From Patescibacteria group bacterium (GTDB taxonomy: Bacteria > Patescibacteriota > Saccharimonadia > CAILAD01 > BJGX01), in NCBI GenBank assembly GCA_026397045.1, contig JAPLVO010000010.1, forward strand, positions 15,858 through 79,857: a stretch of DNA of 64,000 nucleotides, in the 5' to 3' direction. How positions within the stretch are numbered: the first letter of the stretch is position 1; each line of letters begins with the position of its first letter. Under the pieces are notes generated by a model. It saw only the letters and a program-made list of their open reading frames with translations. It was not told the DNA's origin and made no database searches. Positions 6,903 to 55,980 of this stretch are shown one piece after another. The translations under genes and the position numbers were made by a program.

Positions 6903-7526
6903 CTAGTACTTGCGAATTAAACCAATAAGCACGCCTTGTATCTTTATTGGGGTCCCCTTTTCTACATATATTGGCTCCATAGTAGAGTTAGCCGGCTGTA
7001 GCCTGATTCTATTGGGCTCCTTATAATATCTTTTGAGCGTTGCTTCGTTATTATTGACTAGCGCTACCACGGTGTCCCCATTACTAGGAACTGATTTTTC
7101 CTGAACAACCACATAATCCCCATCGTGTATGCCATCTTCGATCATGCTTTGGCCCTTCACCTGAAGCACATAAGAGTTCTTGCTACCCACCATAAAAGCG
7201 GGGACTTCTAGGGTCTCCTTGTGGCCTGTGACAGTTTCTATGGGGCTTCCCGCGGCAATCATGCCTAAAATTGGCAACCCTATACCAGGCTCATTGATGG
7301 AGGACTGTACCTCAAGTACTGGGATAAGTGACCGAGCCGAATTTGCACCTTTCTCTAGGAAACCCTTATCTACAAGAGTATCTATATGCTGGGCCACGGT
7401 GGCTACGGAGTTGAGCTTAAGCCCGTTAGCGATCTCGCGGTAGCTAGGGGAGTATCCCTTCTGCTCTATAAAGGTCGTTATGAAGTCGAGTGTCTTGCGC
7501 TGTTTTTTGGTTAATGCTGGTTTCAT
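6903..7526 (-). CDS. lexA: LexA repressor (SOS regulator, S24 peptidase)
   Basis: N-terminal winged-HTH region (KQRKTLDFITTFIEQKGYSPSYREIANGLKLNSVATVAQHIDTLVDKGFL). C-terminal S24 region with the Ala-Gly cleavage site (MIAAGSPIE), Ser in KGQSM and Lys in the ATLKR motif. Confidence 0.85.
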   Translation of the reverse strand: MKPALTKKQRKTLDFITTFIEQKGYSPSYREIANGLKLNSVATVAQHIDTLVDKGFLEKGANSARSLIPVLEVQSSINEPGIGLPILGMIAAGSPIETVTGHKETLEVPAFMVGSKNSYVLQVKGQSMIEDGIHDGDYVVVQEKSVPSNGDTVVALVNNNEATLKRYYKEPNRIRLQPANSTMEPIYVEKGTPIKIQGVLIGLIRKY

Positions 7527-7567
7527 TTATATTTACCTCCAAGTTTTATATCGCTTTTAATTATAGC

Positions 7568-7582
7568 GAACATAGAACGAAC
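7568..7582. promoter_or_regulatory. Candidate LexA operator: direct repeat GAAC-N7-GAAC immediately upstream of lexA
   Basis: gcGAACatagaacGAACc lies 42-56 bp upstream of the lexA start codon. A third GAAC sits at 7575. It is a direct repeat rather than a palindrome, which resembles the alphaproteobacterial-type SOS box. This is inference only. Confidence 0.3.
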
Positions 7583-7785
7583 CTGTCAAGCACTATAGCA
7601 TAAGTTTCTTGCGGTTAATTCAGCCCTAATCAATATTCCAGATACAGCCTTGCAGCTGTGTTTCCTCTGCGATGCCTGCAATCACCACCAGTAGCCGATA
7701 AAAATTCAGGCTCTTTCTATTGACATAAGATTGTACCTGGAATAACCTAGACTACATAGTAATATTTAATGGAGGAAACAGAACA

Positions 7786-7986: not shown

Positions 7987-8103
7987 TCTAGATAAAGTAG
8001 CACTTAGCTACTGGCAAAAAAGCACCAACGCAAGAAGGTGCTTTTTGCTTATATAGATAATTTGCGGTAATATACCAGCTGGTATTTATTAAGTTCTTTA
8101 GCT

Positions 8104-8131
8104 TGAAAAATATGTCAATTTACTTGATAAT
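8104..8131 (+). promoter_or_regulatory. Putative sigma70-type promoter for the tRNA gene
   Basis: TTGAAA (8104-8109), a 16-nt spacer, then GATAAT (8126-8131). The tRNA 5' end is 8 nt further downstream. Confidence 0.35.
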
Positions 8132-8139
8132 TATATCAA

Positions 8140-8212
8140 GGGCCCGTAGCTCAGTGGTTAGAGCAGTCGGCTCATAACTGATTGGCCGTTGGTTCAAATC
8201 CAACCGGGCCCA
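8140..8212 (+). tRNA. tRNA with CAT anticodon (Met elongator, or Ile2/lysidine type); the CCA at 8213-8215 is encoded
   Basis: Manual fold: acceptor gggcccg/cgggccc, D arm gctc-agtggtta-gagc, anticodon loop cuCAUaa, T arm gttgg-ttcaaat-ccaac, discriminator A followed by CCA. Confidence 0.8.
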
Positions 8213-8299
8213 CCATAGTAGAATAAGGTCGCTTATGTGATCTTTTTTTATTGTCTAAAACTTGCCCTTACAACATAAGCCCTTTACAATAAATAGTCT

Positions 8300-9037
8300 A
8301 TGGTAAAAAAACAAAACACACGGGCAGCTTATAAGCCAGATCATCCCTACCTCAAAACGCTTAGCATACAAAAGAGCTCGGGCTTCGGCCGAAATAAGAT
8401 GCTGGCCATGAGGTCTGCGGTAATTATAGCTTTATTCTTGCTGGAAGGGGTGGTGATGTTAGCCGTGGTTGATTCGAAGATCAGCCATAGCCCTATAAAG
8501 AGTGATGTAGCGGTGGTCGCTAAATCCCCCAAAGCCAAGCCTAAGACCGAAGTAAAAGCAGTTTCTGAGCCAGCCCTGCCTGCCCCAGCCTTGGCTGTAT
8601 CCGATATGTCCTTAGTGATACCTAAGCTATTTATTAACGCTCCAATCGACCCTGTTGGGCTCAATACAAAAGGCGAAATGGCTACTTCACCCAGCCTTCA
8701 AAGGCTGGCTTGGTACAAGGATGGTGCAGTACCGGGCCAAATAGGCACTGCAGTTTTTGCAGGCCATTATGGCGGACCCAACGAAATAGGGGTGTTCAGA
8801 TCGCTAGATCAGCTCAAAAACGGGGATGTTTTAGAGGTCAAAAGCAAGGCCGGCAAAATACAAAAGTACTCGGTCTATAATATAGGTAAATACGCCTTGG
8901 CTGATGTGCCGCTGCAAGAGCTTTTTAATAAAAATGACGGCAAATATCTTAACCTTGTGACTTGCGTGGGGACTTGGAGTAATGGCACTAGTAGTTACGA
9001 CCAACGCTACATTGTTTTTTCTAGGCTAATAGAGTAG
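8300..9037 (+). CDS. Sortase family transpeptidase
   Basis: N-terminal TM anchor. Catalytic His context (TAVFAGHYG). TLxTC-type active site LNLVTCVG. A later conserved Arg. Confidence 0.6.
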   Translation: MVKKQNTRAAYKPDHPYLKTLSIQKSSGFGRNKMLAMRSAVIIALFLLEGVVMLAVVDSKISHSPIKSDVAVVAKSPKAKPKTEVKAVSEPALPAPALAVSDMSLVIPKLFINAPIDPVGLNTKGEMATSPSLQRLAWYKDGAVPGQIGTAVFAGHYGGPNEIGVFRSLDQLKNGDVLEVKSKAGKIQKYSVYNIGKYALADVPLQELFNKNDGKYLNLVTCVGTWSNGTSSYDQRYIVFSRLIE

Positions 9038-9108
9038 TTGACAACCCAAAGCAATTTGAATACAATTAATCATAAGCGTAATTATAAATCTAAGTAGAAT
9101 AGGAAAAA

Positions 9109-10857
9109 ATGAAAATCAACATGACTCGCCGTACAAATATACTATCCTTAGCGGTATTAAGCCTCCTTATACCAGGAATGTTCTTGCTCGCGAAGCCAGC
9201 TAGCGCGCAGTATAGTGGCACTAATGGCCGAATAGTATTTTTGCAGGAGCGATCAGCTGGATTACCAAATACCGTGGAGGTCTGGTCTGCTAACCCAGAT
9301 GGTAGCGCTTTGGTTCAGCTCACTAGCGATGATGAGGCCAATGGTTACCCAGGGGTCTCTAGTGATGGCACAAAGATAATTTATACAAGCTATGACGCTA
9401 CTACTTCTGGTACTTATAGAATTCGGATGATGAATATTGACGGCTCTGGCAAGGTAATATTGCAAGGTACTCAGTCGGCCCCCAATGATTATTATGGGGA
9501 GCCTAAGTTTAGCAAGGACGGCTCTAAGATTGTTTTTGTAGCAGCAGCAGTTACTGGTTTGGCTGGCAATGAAGTGTTTACCGCCAATGCCACAGTAGGT
9601 GCAACCAAAACCCAGCAAACCTCTGGCAGTTCTAGCTCCAATACATCTATGTACCCGATCTTTAATAACGCCGCAACCAATATCTACTACTCCGCCTCAA
9701 ATTCTGGTACTCCTGGCCAAACCAACATATGGAGAGTTGCAGTAACTACCTCTACAATCAATTCCCCATTCCTTTTAACGCAGATAAACTTTGGTGGTGT
9801 TCAGATATCAGCGGCACCAGATTTAAGCCCGGATAATACTAAGCTCATATTCCATAAGAATACTTTTGCCGACCCCGGCATTTATCGTCTATTTTATTTA
9901 AGCAATCCAGAAACTATATCCACTACACAAAATTCAGCGACGCTTGTCACTTTTTCTACACCCCTAGGTGCAACAGACTCTGTTGCAAATCCTATCTTTT
10001 CGCCTGACGGAAATCGAATAACCTACACCCTTTCAGATAGTACAGGATCAGGGTACCAAGTTCAGTTTGCCGATTACTCTTCAGCGAATGTAGTAACTAA
10101 TCGTAGAGCGTTGATTTTAGGCAATGACCTTACTGACCCGAACACTATATTATCATACTGGGGTGCAATGCCTGCAATTCTGAATTGGCGTGGTGATTAT
10201 TCGGCCACACTGCTTTATGCGCCCAATGATGTTGTGTTTTATAGTGGTTCTTCCTATGTTTGTGTCACTGCAAGCTGTTCTGGTAGTACACCATCTAGCA
10301 CATCTACCGATTGGGATCTTATGGCTTCGCAAGGGACCCCTGGAACCAATGGAACCAATGGAACCAATGGAACCAATGGAACCAATGGAACCAATGGAAC
10401 CAATGGAACCAATGGAACCAGCTTTACATGGCTGGGGACTTTTAGCCCCACGACAATCTATACTGCCAGGCAAACGGTATTTTATAATGGGTCTTCATAT
10501 GTTTGCGACCCTGTTTCTCCGGCAACTACATGCCCAGCGGGCACCACACCTACTACTGCAAACGGCTGGGACCTATTGGCTCAACAGGGTATTGCTGGCC
10601 CAACTGGCGTAGCTGGCCCAACTGGCCCACAGGGTGCGACGGGTGCAACAGGCGCAACAGGTTCTGCTGGTTCTGCTGGTTCGGGCAGTTCCGCATCTGG
10701 TTCATCTACCCCCGGCGCTCCCAACGCATCTGTGGCTACATTGGTCAGAACTAGCTCCCCGGTGGCGTTAGCAGGAGTCGCAGTAGCTATGGTTATTGGT
10801 CTAGCTGGGTTCTGGATTAGTATCGAGATCAAATCCTCTAGGTTGGCTAAGCGATAA
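9109..10857 (+). CDS. Large secreted or cell-surface protein. It combines a TolB-like beta-propeller region, two CBM5/12-like chitin-binding modules, a (GTN)8 repeat, a collagen-like G-X-Y repeat and a C-terminal TM anchor.
   Basis: Signal peptide MKINMTRRTNILSLAVLSLLIPGMFLLAKPASA. Propeller-like repeats (DGSKIVFV, SPDGNRITYT). Two W..Y....V.Y.G..Y.C......W modules (NWRGDYSATLLYAPNDVVFYSGSSYVCV...WDL and the second FTWLGTFSPTTIYTARQTVFYNGSSYVCD...WDL). PGTNGTNGTN...GTS encoded by an exact 9-bp DNA repeat. GIAGPTGVAGPTGPQGATGATGATGSAGSAGS. C-terminal hydrophobic segment plus the basic tail KSSRLAKR. Confidence 0.6.
   Translation: MKINMTRRTNILSLAVLSLLIPGMFLLAKPASAQYSGTNGRIVFLQERSAGLPNTVEVWSANPDGSALVQLTSDDEANGYPGVSSDGTKIIYTSYDATTSGTYRIRMMNIDGSGKVILQGTQSAPNDYYGEPKFSKDGSKIVFVAAAVTGLAGNEVFTANATVGATKTQQTSGSSSSNTSMYPIFNNAATNIYYSASNSGTPGQTNIWRVAVTTSTINSPFLLTQINFGGVQISAAPDLSPDNTKLIFHKNTFADPGIYRLFYLSNPETISTTQNSATLVTFSTPLGATDSVANPIFSPDGNRITYTLSDSTGSGYQVQFADYSSANVVTNRRALILGNDLTDPNTILSYWGAMPAILNWRGDYSATLLYAPNDVVFYSGSSYVCVTASCSGSTPSSTSTDWDLMASQGTPGTNGTNGTNGTNGTNGTNGTNGTNGTSFTWLGTFSPTTIYTARQTVFYNGSSYVCDPVSPATTCPAGTTPTTANGWDLLAQQGIAGPTGVAGPTGPQGATGATGATGSAGSAGSGSSASGSSTPGAPNASVATLVRTSSPVALAGVAVAMVIGLAGFWISIEIKSSRLAKR
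10342..10413 (+). repeat. Perfect tandem repeat (GGAACCAAT)x8 inside the coding sequence, followed by one degenerate unit
   Basis: Read directly from the sequence. The 9-bp unit keeps the reading frame, and each unit encodes G-T-N. Confidence 0.9.
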
Positions 10858-10943: not shown

Positions 10944-11750
10944 TTGAAGGATGGCAGGATTGATCTAGCACATAGCCCCCTTTCTGGTGAGTTAAATCAA
11001 TCACAGAACAAGCCTCTGGGTGCAGGATCGCAAGGCAACCAAGTGCCAGCTGGCTCGCCATCTGAAAGCCTCGGCTCGGGCAGTGACCCGGCACCAAACA
11101 GTGATGCGGCGCTGGAAGCCGAAATATCTGCGCGCGTTAGGGCTCGCGAAGCAGACAACCAAGCCAATAATGCATTTAACCCTAGCGTGAGGCGATTTAA
11201 TAAGACCCCTAAAGCAAATAAAATCTTAAAGTATCTTCTTGCCGTGGTGATAACTATATCTATAGTTGCTAGCGCAGTGTTTGGAGCAATGTATTATATG
11301 AGTATTCGCAAGCCAACCCAGCCTGTGCCGGCAAACAACAAGCCCCAATCTGAAGAAAACTCATCACAGGATAATGCGGCAACTAATACCGATCCTAGCA
11401 AATATACTCCTGAACAGATCAAGGCAGTGTCGAAAAGCGAACTGTTTTTATCGTCCCTAAAGGCTCAAGAATACGACAAGGCCTTCGCCCAGCTGGCTCC
11501 AGAACTTAAAAAAGAGTACACCGATGGCATCGAGGGCTTTGCTAGTGACGCCAAGGGGGCAAACCTAAGCCTTATCGACGGTTGGCAGATCGCATCTGTG
11601 AGTACTAACGATTCAGGCGACCGAGTCGTGGTAAAGGGTACGCTTAGCTTTGCTCAATCCACACCTGATGGTAGTTTCGAATTCGGTTTCTACAAAGACG
11701 GCTCCGATTCTGTATTTCTTTTTCAGTGGCAGATAACCCCCGGGGCTTAG
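10944..11750 (+). CDS. Hypothetical membrane-anchored protein, Pro/Ser/Ala-rich at the N-terminus
   Basis: 268-aa ORF with a TTG start as called. Single TM helix ILKYLLAVVITISIVASAVFGAMYYM. The start codon is uncertain. Confidence 0.3.
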   Translation: MKDGRIDLAHSPLSGELNQSQNKPLGAGSQGNQVPAGSPSESLGSGSDPAPNSDAALEAEISARVRAREADNQANNAFNPSVRRFNKTPKANKILKYLLAVVITISIVASAVFGAMYYMSIRKPTQPVPANNKPQSEENSSQDNAATNTDPSKYTPEQIKAVSKSELFLSSLKAQEYDKAFAQLAPELKKEYTDGIEGFASDAKGANLSLIDGWQIASVSTNDSGDRVVVKGTLSFAQSTPDGSFEFGFYKDGSDSVFLFQWQITPGA

Positions 11751-13266: not shown

Positions 13267-13300
13267 AATACCTCTAGATAAGTTTAGAGGTATTTTATGG

Positions 13301-13374
13301 TGGCTGGAGGAGGATTTGAACCTCCGACCTCAGGCTTATGAGTCCCGCGCTCTAACCAACTGAGCTACCCAGCC
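13301..13374 (-). tRNA. tRNA with CAT anticodon. Position 1-72 is fully paired, so this is elongator Met or Ile2. CCA is encoded at 13298-13300.
   Basis: Reverse complement: ggctgggtagctcagttggttagagcgcgggactCATaagcctgaggtcggaggttcaaatcctcctccagcc-a-cca. Confidence 0.75.
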
Positions 13375-13513
13375 TAACTACCATTGATGAAAAAATCCTA
13401 AAAAAGACTGTTTTCAAGCTGTTATTATTACATATTGACCCTGTAATTTCAAGCTAGTAGGGGGCATATCGCCAAAGTAAAAACCCAACGCATAGGTTGG
13501 GTTTTTACTTTGG

Positions 13514-13587
13514 TAGCGGGGGCAGGATTTGAACCTGCGACCTCCAGGTTATGAGCCTGACGAGCTACCAGACTGCTCTACCCCGCG
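13514..13587 (-). tRNA. tRNA with CAT anticodon and a C1:U72 mismatch, making it a candidate initiator tRNA. CCA is encoded at 13511-13513.
   Basis: Reverse complement: cgcggggtagagcagtctggtagctcgtcaggctCATaacctggaggtcgcaggttcaaatcctgccccgct-a-cca. An unpaired first acceptor base pair is typical of bacterial initiator tRNA. Confidence 0.7.
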
Positions 13588-37086: not shown

Positions 37087-37659
37087 ATGAAACAAATGAT
37101 TCCAAATAAAATAACTTATCCTGGCCAGCCAGAAGGGGAGATTACCCAAAGGGTGGTGTATAAAAGCATTATGACTATTGGGCCAATACTGGCCGCTATG
37201 GCCCTAGTATTATTGGGGTATATAGTAGTCGTAATAGCTTACGATAAGAACTCAGCCCAGATAAATGCCATTATACCTAAGGGCTTTATTAGCGTCCTAG
37301 GCTTTTTACTAATTGGGTCTGTAGTATTTTTACTACTTGGAACGGTCTGGATTTGGCGTCGTAATAAGATAATTATAACCAACTCTCATGTTGTAGATAT
37401 GGATCAAATTGGGCTTTTTAATATGTCTCTATCGACTCTGAGCCTATATGAGATACAAGATATCAAGTCTAGTATCAAAGGGCCCATCCAGACATTTCTA
37501 AATTATGGAACTGTTGTGATCCAGACTGCTGGAGAGACAGAGAATTTTGTATTCGATTTTATAGCAGATCCAAATGAACTAAAGCAGTATATCTTGTCGG
37601 CTCGAAAAATATTCTACTCTTCTAAGGCCGTCCAGAAATCCACCAATACAATAGTTTAA
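37087..37659 (+). CDS. Hypothetical membrane protein (two TM helices followed by a PH-like/YdbT-like domain)
   Basis: ORF of 190 aa. The topology is reminiscent of bacterial PH-domain membrane proteins. This is weak. Confidence 0.3.
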   Translation: MKQMIPNKITYPGQPEGEITQRVVYKSIMTIGPILAAMALVLLGYIVVVIAYDKNSAQINAIIPKGFISVLGFLLIGSVVFLLLGTVWIWRRNKIIITNSHVVDMDQIGLFNMSLSTLSLYEIQDIKSSIKGPIQTFLNYGTVVIQTAGETENFVFDFIADPNELKQYILSARKIFYSSKAVQKSTNTIV

Positions 37660-38087
37660 TTTGTGCTAGTGACTCTATAAATACCCTTAGCCTGGTCACT
37701 ACCTAAAGTCTTGAGGTCTTTATCATTTTTGTTCTCTAGTTCGGCGTCTAGATAGAAGCTACTAGGGGGAGTGCCACTAACCACATAAATGTAGTCATTC
37801 CCTGATTTTGGGTCTTTGGGCAGTTTCTTGATAAATGGCACAGCGCCACTTTCTAGCTCTGCAAGAGTTGCTGGGTATGAGCCCTTTTCAGTGTAGTAGT
37901 TTTCTAATGAAGACTTGATTACCCTCAAATCGCTCTTGCGTGAAGAATCGCGAGCCCTAGATGGCCCGCTAACTAGCCCTGGTACTATAAGAACCGCAAA
38001 AAACCCAACCACAATAGCCACAACCACTACATCTAATATCGTGAAGCCAGCCGGCTTATTTGAGAATCTTTGTTTCAATGAAAACAT
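37656..38087 (-). CDS. Type IV pilin-like protein (prepilin-type N-terminal cleavage/methylation domain)
   Basis: KPAGFTILDVVVVAIVVGFFAVLIVP shows a G-F-T-I-L class III signal with a hydrophobic helix, except that Asp replaces the usual Glu at +5. 143 aa. Confidence 0.5.
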   Translation of the reverse strand: MFSLKQRFSNKPAGFTILDVVVVAIVVGFFAVLIVPGLVSGPSRARDSSRKSDLRVIKSSLENYYTEKGSYPATLAELESGAVPFIKKLPKDPKSGNDYIYVVSGTPPSSFYLDAELENKNDKDLKTLGSDQAKGIYRVTSTN

Positions 38088-38184: not shown

Positions 38185-39468
38185 ATGAAGCATATAATAA
38201 TATCATTGATAGTAGTTATGACGGTAGTTGTAATGATGCCATCTAGAGCTCTATCAGCCTCTAAGCCAGTACTGATTAGTGAGGTTCAGACTGGCTCTTT
38301 GATATCCGCAGGGGAAGAGTTCATCGAGATTTTCAATAGTAGCACCTCAGCCATAGATGTAACTGGCTGGAGCCTTTATTACCGATCGGCTACCGGCGTT
38401 GTATGGTCCAAGAAAGGTACTATAGCGTCTGGCAGTGTAGATCCTGGAGATTTTTGGGTCTTGGCGGCCAACACTGTGGGTAATAGCCCGTTTACTAGCG
38501 GCCTAGCACAAAGTGGGGGTAGTATTGAGCTTAGGGACAAACAAGGCGCAGCAGTGGATCAGTTTGGCTGGGGTACGGCAAATACTGCACTTATAACTCC
38601 CGGAAGTGAATCGAAGCCTGGCGAGAGCATGTATCGTTTGTATGATTTTGGCTTAAAGGAAATGGTAAATAGTGATAATAATTTCGCTGATTTTGATATA
38701 TCTAATTCCCCAACACCTGGCATGGCTCCAGCTCAGGAAATAATAGAAGTAGAGGAGCCAGTACAAACATACCCTAACTTAGAGCTAAGCGAACTATTCC
38801 CTGATCCAGTCTCACCTTTAAGTGATGCGAGCGATGAGTTTATCGAGATATACAACCCCACAGCAGAGGCCGTAGATCTTTCGGGCTGGAAACTAAGAGA
38901 TGAATCGGGGGGAGAATACTTAATAAAAGGCAAGACAATCCTGGCATATGGCAGGATAGCAATAATGTCGAGCGAATCAAAGATTACACTTAACAATACA
39001 GGGGACATAATACTTCTGATCGACCCTAACGATAAAGTGGCTGATGAATCTAGCAATTATGGAGCAGCTGAAGAAGGCTTAGGCTGGACAAAGCAAGCTG
39101 GACAATGGCAGTGGAGCATCAGCCCGACTCCTGGTGCAGCTAATTCCGCCATATATATAGATAGCTCTCTTAGCCCCGCCTCATCTGTTGCAAACATTAA
39201 GAAGTCATCAACCAAAAAACCGTCTTCAAAAACTATAACCAAAGCCAAGGCCAAAGCCAAAGCTAAGACCAAGATAAGCAAATTGAAGGCATCACCAAAT
39301 AGTAGCTCCAATCCAGCGTCGTACCCTACCGATGCTAATAAAACGCCAGCTTCAGGTTTGTGGCCCTGGTTGCTTGTATCGCTAGGAATCGCTACCATAG
39401 GTTATGGAATATATGAATACAGAACAGAAATTCAGCTTCAATTCAAAAAACTTAGATCAAAGTTTTAA
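38185..39468 (+). CDS. Secreted protein with two lamin-tail domains, a (KA)n repeat and a C-terminal TM anchor
   Basis: Signal peptide. LISEVQTGS...EEFIEIFNSSTSAIDVTGWSL and ELSELFPDP...DEFIEIYNPTAEAVDLSGWKL match the lamin-tail-domain pattern. KAKAKAKAKTK. C-terminal hydrophobic segment. Confidence 0.5.
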   Translation: MKHIIISLIVVMTVVVMMPSRALSASKPVLISEVQTGSLISAGEEFIEIFNSSTSAIDVTGWSLYYRSATGVVWSKKGTIASGSVDPGDFWVLAANTVGNSPFTSGLAQSGGSIELRDKQGAAVDQFGWGTANTALITPGSESKPGESMYRLYDFGLKEMVNSDNNFADFDISNSPTPGMAPAQEIIEVEEPVQTYPNLELSELFPDPVSPLSDASDEFIEIYNPTAEAVDLSGWKLRDESGGEYLIKGKTILAYGRIAIMSSESKITLNNTGDIILLIDPNDKVADESSNYGAAEEGLGWTKQAGQWQWSISPTPGAANSAIYIDSSLSPASSVANIKKSSTKKPSSKTITKAKAKAKAKTKISKLKASPNSSSNPASYPTDANKTPASGLWPWLLVSLGIATIGYGIYEYRTEIQLQFKKLRSKF

Positions 39469-39889
39469 TCTCGGAACTAAGCTAGCCAAATTAATCCATC
39501 CGCCAATTCTTATTGAATTAGTCGGTGATCTTGGCGGTGGAAAGACCGCACTCGTAAAGGCAATTGCCAAAGGCCTAGGTATAACTCAGACAGTCACTAG
39601 CCCTACATTTAATATTCATCGGGGTTACGAAGCACCCTCTGGAATTCGCTTAGAGCACTTCGACCTGTACAGATTAAACGACGATGAAATCGTAGAAAAC
39701 GAACTGCAAGATAGTCTTGCCAGCTCAAATACGATAGTCTGTACCGAATGGGCTAATCATTTCAGTAAGAATATGGCAGAAGATAGGCTAATGTTGGAGT
39801 GCCACTATATAGACGATAATACGCGGCGCTATGACTTTACCTCAACCGGGCCGATATCTTCCAAGATAATAAACGGACTTAAGCAATGA
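39404..39889 (+). CDS. tsaE: tRNA threonylcarbamoyladenosine biosynthesis protein TsaE
   Basis: P-loop in ELVGDLGGGKTALVKAIAKGLG; TsaE/YjeE family. The called start overlaps the 3' end of the preceding gene by 65 nt, so the true start may lie downstream. Confidence 0.7.
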   Translation: MEYMNTEQKFSFNSKNLDQSFNLGTKLAKLIHPPILIELVGDLGGGKTALVKAIAKGLGITQTVTSPTFNIHRGYEAPSGIRLEHFDLYRLNDDEIVENELQDSLASSNTIVCTEWANHFSKNMAEDRLMLECHYIDDNTRRYDFTSTGPISSKIINGLKQ

Positions 39890-40278
39890 TACTGGCGCTA
39901 AGATCCGACAAGCCAGAGGCAGAGCTATATCTATTTGATGATGGCAAAAAAATAGCTGAAATAAAATGGGAGGCTCATCGCGAGCTTGCCGATACAATAC
40001 TAGGCAAGATAAAAGAAATTTTAGTAAATAATAATATCGCTGATAAAGATATAACCGGAATTATCATGCATACTGGCGAAGGGTCTTTTACTGGGCTGCG
40101 CATCGGAACGACTGTGGCCAATGCTATGTCCTATAGTTTGGGTGTTCCAATCGTTGAGGCAGAAGGCGACAATTGGATAAATGAGGGCCTCGGCAAAATT
40201 ACAAGCTCAAAGCCAGGGAATTTAGTAGTACCAAAGTATAACGCCGAACCAAATATCTCTCAGCCCAAAGACTCTTAA
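39886..40278 (+). CDS. tsaB: TsaB (YeaZ)-like protein, short form
   Basis: MILALRSD...TGEGSFTGLRIGTTVANAMSYSLGVP matches the TsaB N-terminal domain. Only 130 aa. Confidence 0.55.
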   Translation: MILALRSDKPEAELYLFDDGKKIAEIKWEAHRELADTILGKIKEILVNNNIADKDITGIIMHTGEGSFTGLRIGTTVANAMSYSLGVPIVEAEGDNWINEGLGKITSSKPGNLVVPKYNAEPNISQPKDS

Positions 40279-45438: not shown

Positions 45439-45512
45439 CACCTGGCTTCAGCCTAAAGACATAATAATAACCCCCATTAAAAAATGCCAGCTTTACTGGC
45501 ATCTTTTAATGG

Positions 45513-45587
45513 GGCGAGTGATGGGGCTTGAACCCACGACCTCCTGGACCACAACCAGGCGCTCTAACCAACTGAGCTACACCCGCC
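45513..45587 (-). tRNA. tRNA-His (anticodon GTG) with an encoded G at position -1. CCA is encoded at 45510-45512.
   Basis: Reverse complement: g-gcgggtgtagctcagttggttagagcgcctggttGTGgtccaggaggtcgtgggttcaagccccatcactcgc-c-cca. G-1 pairs with C73, a His identity element. Confidence 0.8.
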
Positions 45588-45623
45588 ACGGCGTCAGACA
45601 ACTACTTTGAAAATACTTTATGG

Positions 45624-45697
<74 letters not shown>

Positions 45698-45759
45698 TTA
45701 CATAGTTATTATACCCCAGATATAAATTAATCCCGGCAAGCGGGATAAATTTTTCATGG

Positions 45760-45831
45760 AGCGGGTAGCGGGGATCAAACCCGCATCTCCTGCTTGGAAG
45801 GCAGGAATAATAATCATTATACGATACCCGC
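45760..45831 (-). tRNA. tRNA-Gly (anticodon TCC). CCA is encoded at 45757-45759.
   Basis: Reverse complement: gcgggtatcgtataatgattattattcctgcctTCCaagcaggagatgcgggtttgatccccgctacccgc-t-cca. It has a U73 discriminator and a short D arm that closely resemble E. coli tRNA-Gly(UCC). Confidence 0.8.
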
Positions 45832-46055
45832 AAACAGAAGTGACGCACGAATGCGTCACTTACTGGATCAAATTGATTATTTCTACCAATTTGGGATATG
45901 AAAAGAAATAAAAGGTACAAGGACTAAAAATAAGCGCCTATAGTTAAAAAATTATATACTATTTATGAACTTACCGCAATATTACAGTTAGTAAGCAGAT
46001 CATTATTGTTAAAATTGTGTCATAATGGTATCAATAAATAATAACGAAAGGAAGT

Positions 46056-46445
46056 ATGAATAAATTAAAAAAATTAGCGGCAGTTATCACGGCACTAGCG
46101 AGCACTTTGCCAGTTTCTGCATTTGCTCAGGACGGATATGTATCTAGCTCATTATCGGATAATGCCCAACAAAATTCTGTTGGAGCAACAGGGGCGTTTT
46201 TATTATTCTTTATTGTACTATATGGAATATTTATTATTATTGGGATGGTACTATTCGTATTCTGGATTTTTATGTTGGTAGATGTATTCAAAAGAACCAA
46301 CTGGAAACAGGAAAACGATAAAACACTCTGGATTTTATTAGTTATATTGCTTTACCCAATAGGCTCAATTTTATATTTCTTCTTAGTAAAGAGAAAACTC
46401 GATAATAACAAAAACACCCTTACCGCCCCTCCAAGTGCGACCTAA
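46056..46445 (+). CDS. Small hypothetical membrane protein with a signal peptide
   Basis: 129-aa ORF sitting between two divergent tRNA clusters. Signal peptide plus 2 TM helices. Confidence 0.3.
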   Translation: MNKLKKLAAVITALASTLPVSAFAQDGYVSSSLSDNAQQNSVGATGAFLLFFIVLYGIFIIIGMVLFVFWIFMLVDVFKRTNWKQENDKTLWILLVILLYPIGSILYFFLVKRKLDNNKNTLTAPPSAT

Positions 46446-46566
46446 GTATATTAAAATACGAAAATATTTCAGCTACCAATTGCTAGCCGCTACAAAGCAC
46501 GGCCCCATACGGAATAGTTTTACTGGTAGATTGTTTCGCTTCTATATGCTAAAATAACCAAGATTA

Positions 46567-46640
46567 GCGCCCTTAGCTCAGCTGGATAGAGCGTCTGACT
46601 TCGGATCAGAAGGCCGGGGGTTCGAATCCCTCAGGGCGCA
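46567..46640 (+). tRNA. tRNA-Arg (anticodon TCG). CCA is encoded at 46641-46643.
   Basis: gcgcccttagctcagctggatagagcgtctgactTCGgatcagaaggccgggggttcgaatccctcagggcgc-a-cca. Stem tctga/tcaga, loop ctTCGga. Confidence 0.7.
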
Positions 46641-46673
46641 CCATAAAGTATTTTCAAAGTAGTTGTCTGACGA

Positions 46674-46747
46674 GGGCCAGTAGCTCAGTTGGTTAGAGCG
46701 GCTGCCTCTTAAGCAGCATGTCGCGGGTTCGAATCCCGCCTGGCCCT
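46674..46747 (+). tRNA. tRNA-Lys (anticodon CTT). CCA is encoded at 46748-46750.
   Basis: gggccagtagctcagttggttagagcggctgcctCTTaagcagcatgtcgcgggttcgaatcccgcctggccc-t-cca. Confidence 0.8.
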
Positions 46748-46849
46748 CCATAGTGTTTGCCTTCCTTTGCGATGGAACAAACCAGATTCTATATTCTGCT
46801 TGTTGCATCGAGGGGAAGACAAGTTAAGCTTACGAAAGCGATTTGGCAA

Positions 46850-46923
46850 CGGGGTGTGGCGCAGTTGGCTAGCGCGCGTCGTTTGGGACGATGAGGTCGA
46901 AGGTTCGAGTCCTTTCACCCCGA
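46850..46923 (+). tRNA. tRNA-Pro (anticodon TGG). CCA is encoded at 46924-46926.
   Basis: cggggtgtggcgcagttggctagcgcgcgtcgttTGGgacgatgaggtcgaaggttcgagtcctttcaccccg-a-cca. G37 fits Pro. Confidence 0.75.
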
Positions 46924-46934
46924 CCATAAAAAAT

Positions 46935-48058: not shown

Positions 48059-48164
48059 AGACTATATTTTATCAAACAACTAGGCTTATTAGTAGTTATT
48101 TATACCTACTAGCTGTTGGGTGCTGCTTTCACTTAACAATCTTATGCTATATAATATTAAAAAA

Positions 48165-48764
48165 ATGCAGTACACAATTAATTCAGCTCCTTCTCATAGA
48201 GTAAGAACTAGAAGAAACCGATGGGCGTTCGCAGTTATTGGTTTATTTCTGCTCATTTTGGGAGTTTATTTATCCATTCTATTAATTACGCCTAAAATCC
48301 AGAAGAAGTCACCTCAGCAGATCCAGAAGTCTGCTAGCGAACTACCGGTTTACGACAAGAATACTATATTTATACCGTCAGTAGGTGTCCAGTCCGAAAT
48401 AGGCCAGGGTGGGCCGGGTGTTTTAGATAAGGGCTTAGCCTGGAATCGACTCCCCGAGCAGGGTAACCCAATTAAAGGCGGCAATATGATAATTACTGGC
48501 CATAGTTTTGTATGGGGCTACGACCCATCGCAGGTTACAAAAAGATCCATTTTCTATGACCTTAAAAATGCCAAAGTTGGCGGTGATGTACTAATAAATT
48601 GGTATGGCAAACAGTATAAATATACTATTACTAAAGTAAAGACAGTTAAACCCAGCTCTGTTGAAATTGAAAATCAAAGTAGTGAACCAATGCTCACTAT
48701 CTACACCTGCACCTTGGGAGGGTCGGCCGATGGCAGGGTAGTAGTAATCGCTAAGCCCAGTTAG
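48165..48764 (+). CDS. Sortase family transpeptidase (second copy)
   Basis: N-terminal TM anchor. His in ITGHSFVW. TLxTC-type active site LTIYTCTLGG. The ORF may begin at 48120. Confidence 0.55.
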   Translation: MQYTINSAPSHRVRTRRNRWAFAVIGLFLLILGVYLSILLITPKIQKKSPQQIQKSASELPVYDKNTIFIPSVGVQSEIGQGGPGVLDKGLAWNRLPEQGNPIKGGNMIITGHSFVWGYDPSQVTKRSIFYDLKNAKVGGDVLINWYGKQYKYTITKVKTVKPSSVEIENQSSEPMLTIYTCTLGGSADGRVVVIAKPS

Positions 48765-54147: not shown

Positions 54148-55980
54148 CTAAAGCGCGCTAGCAGGCCCATTATTATTTGCACTTGCTGTATTGTCTTCGA
54201 ATTCATCTCTGGATCTATTCAGTGGATTTAGTTCATTTACAGCTTCCGGAAATCCCGATACCAATGTGCTTGAAGGAGTGGCCGGTATTGTAATCGGCTG
54301 GCTCGCAGGGGCTGTATTGGGCAATACCACTGGATGCTCGGCCGATTGGGTGCTAGATGTTATCGCAGGAGCTATGACAGGAGACGGCATTGCGGGTGGT
54401 ATTGAAGTAGGTATGATGTCGCTATCATTACTTTGCCCGATAACGGGTGCTTTTGTCTCTGATGGCTGAGGAGGAATTAGCGGGGGCTTGGGGGCCTTGG
54501 CAATGGGCGTAGGAGGCTCTAAATTAGAGATTGGCGGTGTTACTCTTGGGGGCTGAGGGGGAAAATTATTTGTATTAGCAAATTTATTATCTCTTGTCGC
54601 AGAGGGGGTTACCGGCCTGGGTGGAGTCATGGCTTTTGGTGGTGCCTGGATGTCGCCATCGATACTTTTTAGGGGCTTTGGCCTAGGCCCATCAATGGTG
54701 TTAAGAACAGCACTTTGGGTCGGCATATTTGCTGATTCTTTCGAAGGCTGAGTGGAATCTAGTGAATATTGGATTTCTAGCAAGCGATTATATTTTGCTA
54801 TTCGTTCACCTCTGACAGGAGCCCCAACTTTTATTCCATAGGCGCCTACTCCATAGGCTAAATCCACAATAAAATCATCATTACTTTCACCACTTCTGTG
54901 GCTAATTATGACCTCATTGCCTACCTCTCGAGCCATATCGATAGCAGCAAACATTTCCGATATGCTTCCAACTTGGTCGGGCTTGATAATTATCCCGTCA
55001 AAGACCTTTTCTTTTGCGAAATCATTAATCTTGCGTGAGTCTGTAACTGTAAAATCGTCTGATATTATCTGGAAGGGCTTACTTTCTGAGGGGATGCTCT
55101 TGAGTAGCTCGAGACCTTCAAGATCGGTTTCAGCAAATGGGTCTTCTAGCGAGAAAAGATCAAACTTTTGATCCCATGCCTGGTAGGCTGCAAGTAAATC
55201 GCTAGCGTGTGCGTTGTTTCCCTCAAAAACATAATTTTTACCGTTGTAAAAGCTGTTGGCAGCAATATCTAGGGCTATTTCAAATTTCGAATCCATTTTT
55301 TCTCTGAGGTTGGCAATTGCTTCTAGGACTACTTCTGTTCTAACACCAACTGGCGCGATGGCACCCTCGTCGCCTACTAGCTGGGCCGCTGGGCCATACA
55401 AACTAACCATTATTGTCTTGATGGTTTGATAAACCTGAACTATCATTTCTATAGATTCTATTGGGTTGGTTGATTTAGGGACAATCATAAACTCCTGAAT
55501 ATCCAGTCCGGGGGCGTGTTTACCACCACTAACTAAATTAGCGTATATTCTAGGAAACTTAGGAGTGGTTTTTCGATTTTCAGCAATGTATTGCCAGAGG
55601 GGTTTTTTACTGAGCTTGGCACTTAGCTTAAAGTAGGCACCTGAGAGCGCCAAAATTGTATTTGCGCCCAAGTTCTGCTTATTATCTGTCCCGTCTAGAG
55701 CGATTACTAGGCTATCGAAGTCATCTTGATGTTTTAGCGGATACCCAATAAACTTGGGTGAAACAATTTTATTGATTAAATCCACGCACGAGGCTACACT
55801 CTTTCCGCCGTAGCTATCGCCGTTATCAGTCTTTTTTTCTGCTTCACCTATACCCAAGCTAGAGCCTGCGGGCACAATAAACCATGATGAAGTACCATTT
55901 TCAGCTACCATCCTGACTTTTAGCGTCGGCTCACCGTTAGAATTTAGTACCTGCGAGGGTACAATGCTTTTAATTCCCAT
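54148..55980 (-). CDS. eno: Enolase carrying a C-terminal Pro/Ser/Thr-rich extension of about 185 aa
   Basis: The enolase core is roughly residues 1-425: SHRSGESNDDFIVDLAYGVGAYGIKVGAPVRGERIAKYNRLLEIQ, and IKPDQVGSISEMFAAIDMA. The low-complexity tail (PPKAMTPPRPVTPS...PPQPPRVTPP...) is encoded by 54148-54705. Confidence 0.85.
   Translation of the reverse strand: MGIKSIVPSQVLNSNGEPTLKVRMVAENGTSSWFIVPAGSSLGIGEAEKKTDNGDSYGGKSVASCVDLINKIVSPKFIGYPLKHQDDFDSLVIALDGTDNKQNLGANTILALSGAYFKLSAKLSKKPLWQYIAENRKTTPKFPRIYANLVSGGKHAPGLDIQEFMIVPKSTNPIESIEMIVQVYQTIKTIMVSLYGPAAQLVGDEGAIAPVGVRTEVVLEAIANLREKMDSKFEIALDIAANSFYNGKNYVFEGNNAHASDLLAAYQAWDQKFDLFSLEDPFAETDLEGLELLKSIPSESKPFQIISDDFTVTDSRKINDFAKEKVFDGIIIKPDQVGSISEMFAAIDMAREVGNEVIISHRSGESNDDFIVDLAYGVGAYGIKVGAPVRGERIAKYNRLLEIQYSLDSTQPSKESANMPTQSAVLNTIDGPRPKPLKSIDGDIQAPPKAMTPPRPVTPSATRDNKFANTNNFPPQPPRVTPPISNLEPPTPIAKAPKPPLIPPQPSETKAPVIGQSNDSDIIPTSIPPAMPSPVIAPAITSSTQSAEHPVVLPNTAPASQPITIPATPSSTLVSGFPEAVNELNPLNRSRDEFEDNTASANNNGPASAL

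Follow-up and report, generated by a model that had tools for sequence, protein, structure and literature searches.

The stretch analysed here (the window) comprises 64,000 nucleotides (64 kb) of contig JAPLVO010000010.1 from a member of Candidatus (Ca.) Saccharimonadia, a lineage of the Candidate Phyla Radiation (CPR) or Patescibacteria. It contains a sortase gene directly followed by a gene for a 582-residue secreted protein, which is best described as a sortase-associated, collagen-like variable-number tandem repeat (VNTR) surface protein of a Saccharimonadia bacterium. On balance, this protein is probably a cell-surface fibre or adhesin and the dedicated substrate of the upstream sortase. 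The repeat as such is an ordinary phenomenon, a collagen-like VNTR of a known kind. New here are the host lineage, an apparently uncatalogued sorting-signal variant that is backed by sortase adjacency, and a stalk of carbohydrate-binding module (CBM) 5/12 and collagen-like segments recently inserted into a conserved propeller cargo.

Domain architecture of the surface protein

The whole gene spans 9109–10857 on the forward strand, as do all parts described below, and is defined by the open reading frame (ORF) list and by the syntenic orthologues P0001, P0002 and the L009 allele. The exact 582-residue protein has no record in the public gene index. The initial annotation had proposed a secreted mosaic of a propeller, two CBM5/12-like modules, collagen-like tracts, and a transmembrane (TM) segment with a basic tail, all of which are recovered by Pfam, AlphaFold2 (AF2) and hydropathy. 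The full-length AF2 model (monomer, 64-sequence alignment) has three confident regions, namely the propeller and two small β modules (residues 358–410 and 438–492, both with predicted local distance difference test (pLDDT) values of 85–90). In the Gly-X-Y tracts pLDDT is below 50, and the tail also scores low, which is normal when a monomer is predicted.

The N-terminus reads as a Sec-type signal peptide (residues 1–34; 9109–9210), with a helix at residues 12–24 in the AF2 model. It ends in PASA, followed by QYSGTNGR, and the junction A-x-A-Q-[YF]-x-G-x-N-G-R is kept in all orthologues. The head (residues ~38–353; 9220–10167) is a TolB-like PD40 β-propeller with mosaic hypervariable loops, as defined by Pfam, AF2, Foldseek and 11 alleles. 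PD40 (PF07676) matches at 4.7e-13, above its gathering score, residues 40–335 have pLDDT values of 80–95, and the structure matches the C-terminal propeller of TolB (4r40_C, Foldseek E 6.6e-17, 300 columns). The head thus has both the PD40 repeats and the six-bladed fold of this family. The TolB equivalog model TIGR02800 scores 47 bits against a cutoff of 343, in an alignment limited to the propeller part. The resemblance to TolB is therefore one of fold and repeat family; unlike TolB, the protein has no TolB N-terminal domain and is not a Tol-Pal component. Its host is, presumably, a bacterium without an outer membrane.

Between the head and the C-terminus, two CBM5/12-fold modules alternate with two Gly-X-Y tracts. 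Module 1 (residues ~358–408; 10180–10332; best Pfam stretch at residues 365–402; pLDDT ~87–94) contains Cys385 and Cys390. It is followed by tract 1 (residues 409–438; 10333–10422), which reads GTP-(GTN)8-GTS. Module 2 (residues ~439–493; 10423–10587; second CBM_5_12 stretch; pLDDT ~84–92) contains Cys466 and Cys475 and precedes tract 2 (residues 494–523; 10588–10677), which reads GIA GPT GVA GPT GPQ (GAT)3 (GSA)2. The remainder consists of a candidate sorting motif, T-P-G-A-P-N-A-S (residues 534–541; 10708–10731), conserved in the sortase-adjacent orthologues; a hydrophobic TM segment found by hydropathy scan (residues 552–572; 10762–10824), which ends in G-F-W-I-S-I and belongs to the predicted sorting signal; and the charged tail EIKSSRLAKR with the stop codon (10825–10857), whose Glu573 is invariant in the tail alignment.

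Tandem repeats and their variation between strains

Tract 1 is encoded by a perfect 9-bp array, (GGAACCAAT)x8, which Tandem Repeats Finder (TRF) reports as 8.9 copies at 10341–10420 with 100% matches and a score of 160, bearing out the eight perfect repeats described initially. It is the sole strong tandem repeat in the window; the other arrays above the TRF threshold are a 21-bp x2 repeat and a period-18 array in tract 2. As had also been noticed, tract 2 is itself built from short DNA repeats, reported by TRF in three rows at 10577–10626 (period 18), 10595–10629 (period 9) and 10660–10682 (period 9, 100%).

Two full-length orthologues from the first protein search, P0001 (637 residues) and P0002 (586 residues), lie on contigs syntenic with the window, and ten further contigs of the same species were reached through a 98%-identical sortase (P0239). 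The same-species GROS21 contigs match the window at 96–96.5% identity over as much as 8.5 kb, and four alleles were distinguished among contigs of ~96% identity. The window allele has GTP(GTN)8GTS in tract 1 and lacks, in tract 2, one 9-bp CTGGCCCAA unit (GPT) that the other alleles have. Tract 1 reads GTT(GAP)2(GTN)2GTS in L009 and GTT(GAP)3(GTN)2GTS in L002, while L001/L010 combine GTT(GAP)2(GTN)2GTS with a complete extra copy of the ~54-residue CBM module before the tract. Tract 1 therefore has 10 triplets in the window and 6–7 in the sister alleles, and tract 2 has 10 and 11, respectively. The type of repeat unit differs as well, GGAGCCCCT (GAP) versus GGAACCAAT (GTN). Every difference consists of whole triplets or whole modules, so that the glycine period and the reading frame are kept.

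Repeat number thus differs among close strains whose flanks are ~96–97% identical, as in other VNTR or contingency loci. The initial annotation had expected slipped-strand variation in copy number; the variation between strains is real, whereas slippage of a single unit does not account for all of it, as unit types have changed and a module has been duplicated too. Stalk length and composition change without a change of frame, so on/off phase variation is ruled out: the 9-bp units and all observed indels are in frame. An apparently frameshifted allele (L008) was rejected, since a scaffold gap (a run of N) lies exactly at the repeat. Contigs L011 and L012 stop inside the duplicated CBM module; a break of the assembly at the ~160-bp internal duplication is a likelier cause than heterogeneity.

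The head varies by substitution. Between the window and L009, the surface proteins share 89.6% amino acid identity, with a nonsynonymous rate (dN) of 0.0615 and a ratio to the synonymous rate (dN/dS) of ~0.6, obtained by crude counting on this one pair of alleles, a limitation that weighs against leaning on the value; eight neighbouring genes have 96.5–100% identity and dN/dS of 0–0.47. In 11 full or partial alleles, substitutions cluster in the propeller loops at about residues 47–57, 96–105, 147–151, 200–222, 233–240, 257–300 and 320–350. Loop variants occur in mosaic combinations, the window matching L012 at some loops and L011 at others. Little or no variation is seen in module 2, tract 2, the motif, the TM segment or the tail. 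By these counts, no part of the locus evolves faster than the propeller head. By analogy, a variable head, a length-variable stalk and a constant anchor form a pattern typical of exposed adhesins or of surface proteins targeted by phages or hosts.

A probable collagen-like stalk inserted behind the propeller

The Collagen and CBM5/12 profiles, for which the initial annotation had advised a search, both match above their gathering scores. Collagen (PF01391) matches at 2.8e-7 (30.6 bits, cutoff 27.2) in two stretches, which places the protein within that family. The best stretch (residues 409–436) is the GTN repeat itself, a match that the first reading of the sequence had overlooked. Tract 1 consists of ten Gly-X-Y triplets in perfect register, one 9-bp unit corresponding to one collagen triplet, and tract 2, located after module 2, likewise has ten. 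In a distant relative, P0102, GTN triplets occur inside an ordinary collagen-like run (GPQ GPI GAT GPQ GPA GQN GTN GTN). Because of the Gly-X-Y register, the Collagen match, the replacement of GTN by GAP in sister alleles and the tract of P0102, a collagen-type tract is a better reading of the repeat than an N-glycosylation sequon array.

CBM_5_12 (PF02839) also matches in two stretches (7.6e-7, 29.5 bits, cutoff 26.2), and the modules have the small β fold of this family. A phmmer search of the PDB aligns module 2 (residues 448–483) weakly with the chitin-binding domain of chitinase A1 (1ed7, E 0.64). In a model of the cassette alone (AF2, mean pLDDT 79), the modules match the chitin-binding domains of Streptomyces griseus ChiC (2d49, TM-score (TMt) 0.71) and Serratia ChiB (1e15, root-mean-square deviation (rmsd) ~1.5 Å), as well as the tandem CBMs of Vibrio COD. 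They match the same fold in the trimeric phage tail fibres 9rkv, 8fqc and 8kec (rmsd 1.2 Å, 49 columns for 8kec), where its role is structural. The two cysteines in each module (385/390 and 466/475) fit an extracellular disulfide.

More than 100 proteins, many of them from Acidobacteria, reiterate a CBM module followed by (GXY)n four to five times and have nothing else in common with the 582-residue protein. These CBM5/12 and Collagen proteins (some also with DNRLRE/PF24517) of Acidobacteria and other soil bacteria share the supermodule W-x-G-x-Y...D-x-V-x-Y-N-G-S-x-Y...W-x-L-L-A-x-Q-G + (GXY)n with the cassette, at 30–47% identity and E-values down to 7e-82. Unlike the 582-residue protein, they carry 4–5 units and other heads (DNRLRE, ‘TGF-beta propeptide’), and they cover 26–32% of the query. 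Among the 120 matches listed, the C-terminal anchor is present only in P0001, P0002 and P0102.

Saccharimonadia orthologues from outside the window species (379–412 residues, L024 excepted) consist of propeller and tail, without the CBM/collagen cassette. In these proteins the propeller ends in P-[FY]-W-G-T-N and continues through a short linker to the TPGxPN tail. Because the more distant orthologues go straight from propeller to tail, the ~170-residue cassette (residues ~356–525) is, as judged from these alignments, a lineage-specific stalk insertion into a conserved propeller cargo. A recent phage origin of the cassette was considered; tail fibres do contain the fold, but the sequence gives no support.

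P0102 (425 residues), a PD40 propeller from an unrelated lineage, has its own collagen-like tract with GTN, an S/T/G/N-rich linker and the tail PSTPDTSATSFLKSP-TM-...RGKNTWR. With a propeller-only query (residues 1–350), it is the only one with a tail among the 120 PD40 proteins listed. The sequence of P0102 suggests that the design of propeller, collagen and tail either evolved repeatedly or extends further than the word-indexed search reveals.

Several observations weigh against a collagen-like fibre. The two Gly-X-Y tracts, of 10 triplets each, are short and contain little Pro and few charged residues, which makes a stable triple helix uncertain. E-values for the fold matches of the ~50-residue modules are weak (≥4e-3), a common outcome with domains so small, and the cassette finds no match in 50,697 annotated phages by tblastn. 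These points leave some room for the view, which we doubt but consider possible, that the tracts are flexible, low-complexity and perhaps O-glycosylated linkers in a monomer, with no triple helix and a VNTR in near-neutral drift. Pro and charged pairs stabilise bacterial collagens, and GTN, GAT and GSA lack them; the low AF2 confidence in both tracts would also fit a flexible chain. Caveats about stability have been stated for short collagen-like regions in general (PMC4565658). A linker under no constraint is harder to reconcile with a glycine period that is perfect in all alleles, with indels that are always whole triplets, and with the strict glycine period that the cassette family keeps in its module + (GXY)n units across hundreds of proteins. 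The recurrence of the module fold in trimeric tail fibres likewise argues for a fibre.

The sortase and its predicted substrate

The upstream gene (8300–9037, forward strand) encodes a sortase of 245 residues with an N-terminal membrane anchor and a catalytic domain, assigned by PF04203 and NCBIfam, and the adjacency described in the initial annotation is correct. PF04203 matches at 8e-19 (68.1 bits, cutoff 26.6), well within the family, and the catalytic residues His156, Cys222 and Arg236 are intact and invariant in the alignment. The best class is F (NF033748), which scores 105.4 bits against a cutoff of 166 (112–119 bits in the orthologues), so the enzyme is class-F-like rather than a certified member.

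Thirty-two close relatives of the sortase were found by homology search, and the gene context of eight was examined. The shared gene order is LexA, a small ORF, the sortase, a secreted tail-bearing protein, a DUF4190/TM protein, Metallophos, DivIC and TilS. Adjacency of sortase and substrate is kept in nine independent Saccharimonadia loci, down to 43% sortase identity (the window together with L003/L006/L027, L018, L019–21, L022, L023, L024 and L025/26). Scans of species-representative genomes with the sortase gave two loci, and a scan of metagenome contigs with the sortase alignment gave three. In a Ca. Saccharimonadia metagenome-assembled genome (MAG), a sortase of 48% identity is followed by a 399-residue secreted propeller protein ending in SVGAPNTTTTNYLSKNYFP-TM-RKEFYGRKR. 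In a Patescibacteria MAG (41%), the neighbour of the sortase ends in TLPNTGHGPSLPVSP-TM-RRFNPR, which contains a canonical LPXTG motif (LPNTG) and thereby links the motif series to LPXTG. Among the metagenome contigs, L007 (sortase 32% identical) has no adjacent substrate and L005 is too short.

No other ORF in the window shares the classical sorting-signal-like layout of the 582-residue protein, a hydrophobic segment and a basic tail. The C-terminus of this protein has neither LPXTG nor LAXTG, as had been pointed out, and inspection for a motif recognised by the adjacent sortase gave a candidate instead. In all sortase-adjacent orthologues, the tail contains T-P-G-[AV]-P-[ND]-[TSA]-[ATS] about 10 residues before the TM segment. 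The motif is followed by 8–11 residues, often with Pro at the end, by a TM segment whose end is G-[FYI]-[WYL], and by x-x-x-E-x-K with a basic stretch; neither Pro538 nor Glu573 varies. In the window, the peptide over the candidate motif is SSTPGAPNASVATL, with A-P-N-A-S as the pentapeptide at the LPXTG position. Since the linkers upstream of the motif are unalignable, its conservation is selective. In L024, a different, 214-residue passenger with Vgb_lyase/SGL-type repeats carries the same tail (TPGAPDTAD...), which therefore behaves as a portable sorting module. A second candidate, ‘LVRTS’ (residues 545–549), was considered as a degenerate LPXTG and rejected because it is not conserved in the orthologues, unlike TPG[AV]PN.

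Run on the isolated tails at E≤10, the NCBIfam sorting-signal models give nothing but a lone GVDTG_CTERM match at E 2.2, which is noise. TIGR01167 gives no match at this threshold for the tail of the window protein or for five orthologous tails; the LPNTG neighbour in L004 is the sole tail that it scores (14.6, cutoff 15.9). A literature search on CPR sortase substrates and sorting motifs found nothing specific, while sortases are enriched in CPR (PMC6744442).

Known sorting motifs are LPXTG (classes A, C and F), (N/S/P)PXTG (B), LPXTA (D) and LAXTG (E) (PMC8225981). The tail resembles such signals in its tripartite layout, in the invariant Pro at position 2 and in being encoded beside a sortase with the His/Cys/Arg triad. 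It differs in having [AV]-P-[ND]-[TSA]-[ATS] after a conserved T-P-G, without Leu and Gly but with Thr kept in most species, and in its ~10-residue spacer and conserved G-[FY]-[WY]-x3-E-x-K end. Precedents exist for a first residue other than Leu (class B) and a last residue other than Gly (class D) (PMC8225981). From sequence, the protein thus probably carries an uncatalogued variant of the sortase anchoring signal, and we consider processing by the sortase at TPG[AV]P[ND] reasonably likely.

Several points tell against such processing. The class F cutoff is not reached by the sortase. The motif lies ~11 residues from the TM segment, a gap longer than in many LPXTG proteins, and its position 4 is Ala in the window and Thr or Ser in other species. 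Each characterised motif tabulated in a review has Thr at that position, and class D (LPXTA) is the only one without a final Gly (PMC8225981). The alternative is that no sortase acts on this protein, the hydrophobic segment and basic tail forming a permanent membrane tail-anchor while the enzyme serves other substrates. That arrangement, which we judge rather unlikely, would suit the missing LPXTG or LAXTG, the silence of TIGR01167 and the Ala at position 4, and also a promoter-like site (TTGACA-17-TACAAT, 11/12, a consensus match alone) at 9038–9066 on the forward strand, between the sortase stop and the start of the surface-protein gene, which would give this gene its own promoter. It leaves unexplained why the two genes stay adjacent in nine independent loci, why TPG[AV]P[ND] is conserved between unalignable flanks and retained when the passenger is swapped in L024, why motif, TM segment and basic tail are laid out as in a sorting signal, and why a related sortase is paired with an LPNTG protein.

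Another secreted protein of the window, with two Lamin-tail domains (PF00932, 9.4e-33; 38185–39468, forward strand), ends in KASPNSSSNPASYPTDANKTPASG-LWPWLLVSLGIATIGYGIY-EYRTEIQLQFKKLRSKF. Its C-terminus, with xPN[S][S], a TM segment ending in G-I-Y, a Glu and a basic tail, resembles the sorting module of the 582-residue protein, and it may be a second sortase substrate. A T2SSG-like pseudopilin gene (37656–38087, reverse strand) lies just upstream of its gene.

In some related Saccharimonadia, an apparent pseudo-sortase paralogue follows the substrate gene (L025, 5698–6315; L026, 5707–6324; L027, 4609–5331), and the window lacks it. In these paralogues the His (GHY to GYY/GYF) and the Cys (TC to LI/LV) are lost and the Arg is kept. 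The window encodes a second, divergent sortase of 214 residues (48120–48764, forward strand; PF04203 1.5e-18), whose best NCBIfam classes are C and D (38 and 28 bits). It has no obvious adjacent substrate, its neighbours being small multi-TM proteins and a pyruvoyl arginine decarboxylase.

Downstream of the surface-protein gene is an ORF for a 268-residue protein (10944–11750, forward strand) with a disordered N-terminus, one TM segment and a conserved C-terminal domain ending in FEFGFYKDG...WQITPGA. Most related loci have it at the corresponding place behind the sortase substrate, and its crude dN/dS is fairly high (0.47). The window protein has no Pfam match, and its counterparts in L018, L019 and L024 match DUF4190. 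Three tRNA-Met(CAT) genes lie within 5.5 kb flanking the sortase locus (8140–8215, 13298–13374 and 13511–13587), one of them between a 66-residue ORF and the sortase, preceded by a 21-bp x2 direct repeat (8097–8139). LexA is found beside the sortase locus in all related contigs; in the window, a perfect 12/12 sigma-70 consensus (TTGACA-18-TATAAT, 7560–7589, reverse strand) is located upstream of the divergent LexA gene (6903–7526).

The repeat as a possible glycosylation array

The initial annotation had read the repeat as a series of N-glycosylation sequons. The eight consecutive N-G-T motifs are present, and the window allele has 12 N-X-S/T sites in total, 8 of them from the repeat, compared with 9–10 sites, including two NGT each, in the sister alleles. 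PglB-type bacterial N-glycosylation needs D or E at position −2, and none of the 12 sites has it (0/12 for the extended sequon D/E-X-N-X-S/T). A search for glycosyltransferases, suggested at the outset, found no such family in Pfam scans of the ~55 ORFs of the window, whose genes include the housekeeping MurJ, DnaK/DnaJ/GrpE/HrcA, RuvABC, ComEC, RNase Y, glycolytic enzymes and UvrD.

The sequon reading would have the GTN repeat display eight N-G-T sites to an HMW1C-like or PglB-like enzyme, copy number tuning glycan load or antigenicity. Every allele does retain two NGT units, and collagen-like surface proteins such as BclA are heavily glycosylated. Its Thr-rich collagen-like region is described as O-glycosylated in work cited in PMC7743900, where a polymorphic predicted N-glycosite of Pasteuria Pcl7 is reported to correlate with infectivity. 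Some glycosylation of the protein is possible, as the 64 kb searched are only part of the genome. We nevertheless regard the sequon reading as very unlikely, given the strict Gly-X-Y register and best Collagen stretch of the tract, the swap of most GTN units for sequon-free GAP in sister alleles, the lack of an acidic residue at −2 and of a glycosyltransferase among the ~55 ORFs of the window, and the similar behaviour of sequon-free single-triplet tracts (GAN, GAS) in Burkholderia (PMC4565658).

Proposed mechanism

The reading of the protein as a sortase-anchored, collagen-like fibre would work as follows. The protein would be exported by Sec and held in the membrane by its tripartite C-terminal signal (TPGAPNAS, a ~10-residue spacer and TM, and the basic tail). 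The sortase would cleave within or next to A-P-N-A-S and transfer the protein to peptidoglycan; MurJ is encoded in the window, which implies a peptidoglycan wall as acceptor. Once mature, the protein would expose its TolB-like propeller head on a stalk in which two CBM5/12-fold beads, each with a disulfide, take turns with two Gly-X-Y tracts of ~10 triplets; in the first tract, (GGAACCAAT)8 encodes (Gly-Thr-Asn)8. The stalk would probably trimerise to form short helices of collagen type, much as bacterial collagen-like proteins and phage tail fibres do. Its length and composition would change between strains through slippage during replication and through unequal recombination, both acting on the 9-bp units and the ~160-bp modules. 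The head loops would diversify by point mutation and recombination while the anchor stays invariant. The stalk cassette itself would have been inserted, in this lineage, into an older and conserved sortase-substrate pair.

Comparison with known collagen-like proteins

The protein resembles Scl1/Scl2 of Streptococcus pyogenes, BclA of Bacillus anthracis, Lcl of Legionella, Bucl of Burkholderia and Pcl of Pasteuria in being secreted, in having a globular head on a Gly-X-Y region, and in having short tandem DNA repeats with a strain-variable number of triplets. Scl proteins are sortase-anchored as well. Pure GAN repeats of 7–22 copies make up Bucl1, with GAS in Bucl8 and mostly GTS in Bucl3, and copy number is strain-variable (PMC4565658). 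In Legionella, the repeat number of Lcl correlates with adhesion and biofilm formation (PMC6460258). The protein of the window differs from them in several ways: its tracts are far shorter (10 + 10 triplets), CBM5/12-fold modules interrupt them, a TolB-like propeller takes the place of a V-domain or C1q-like domain as head, the candidate anchor motif is APNAS and not LPXTG, and the host is a CPR bacterium. NCBIfam gives weak matches to SclB, SclA and Lcl (E 0.009–0.04). Against the Scl1/Scl2 models (NF038329/NF038330), the protein scores 15 and 13.5 bits, far below the equivalog cutoffs of 325 and 400, and it has no LPXTG; it therefore lies outside the Scl families.

Implications for surface display in CPR bacteria

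CPR/Patescibacteria make up a large fraction of bacterial diversity. To our knowledge, all cultivated members live attached to host cells, and we know of few surface molecules for this attachment apart from type IV pili. The sortase and propeller pair may conceivably be a dedicated surface-display system of Saccharimonadia, with an undescribed sorting signal and a host-recognition adhesin of an episymbiont as its cargo, a proposal that we hold tentatively. If true, the mosaic propeller loops and the length-variable collagen/CBM stalk would reflect an arms race with host cell surfaces, and the pair would open a concrete molecular route to the study of host specificity in CPR bacteria. The variation of head and stalk between co-occurring strains, with an invariant anchor, is the pattern expected of a determinant exposed to hosts or phages.

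The pair consists of one sortase and one substrate with a recognisable motif; a hidden Markov model of this motif could serve to inventory the CPR surface proteome, and the enzyme could be a candidate new specificity for sortase-mediated ligation. The locus also illustrates clearly how an existing surface protein can gain a longer stalk through insertion of a CBM5/12-plus-collagen ‘beads on a string’ cassette.

Other features of the window

Three further features were noted elsewhere in the window. An enolase ORF of 609 residues (54148–55980, reverse strand) has Enolase_N and Enolase_C domains that end near residue 409, followed by a C-terminal extension of ~200 residues. Six tRNA genes are clustered at 45510–46926. 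After TsaE, a 130-residue ORF (39886–40278, forward strand) covers no more of the TsaD/Kae1 profile than its N-terminal ~60 residues; it may encode a truncated partner of the TsaB type.

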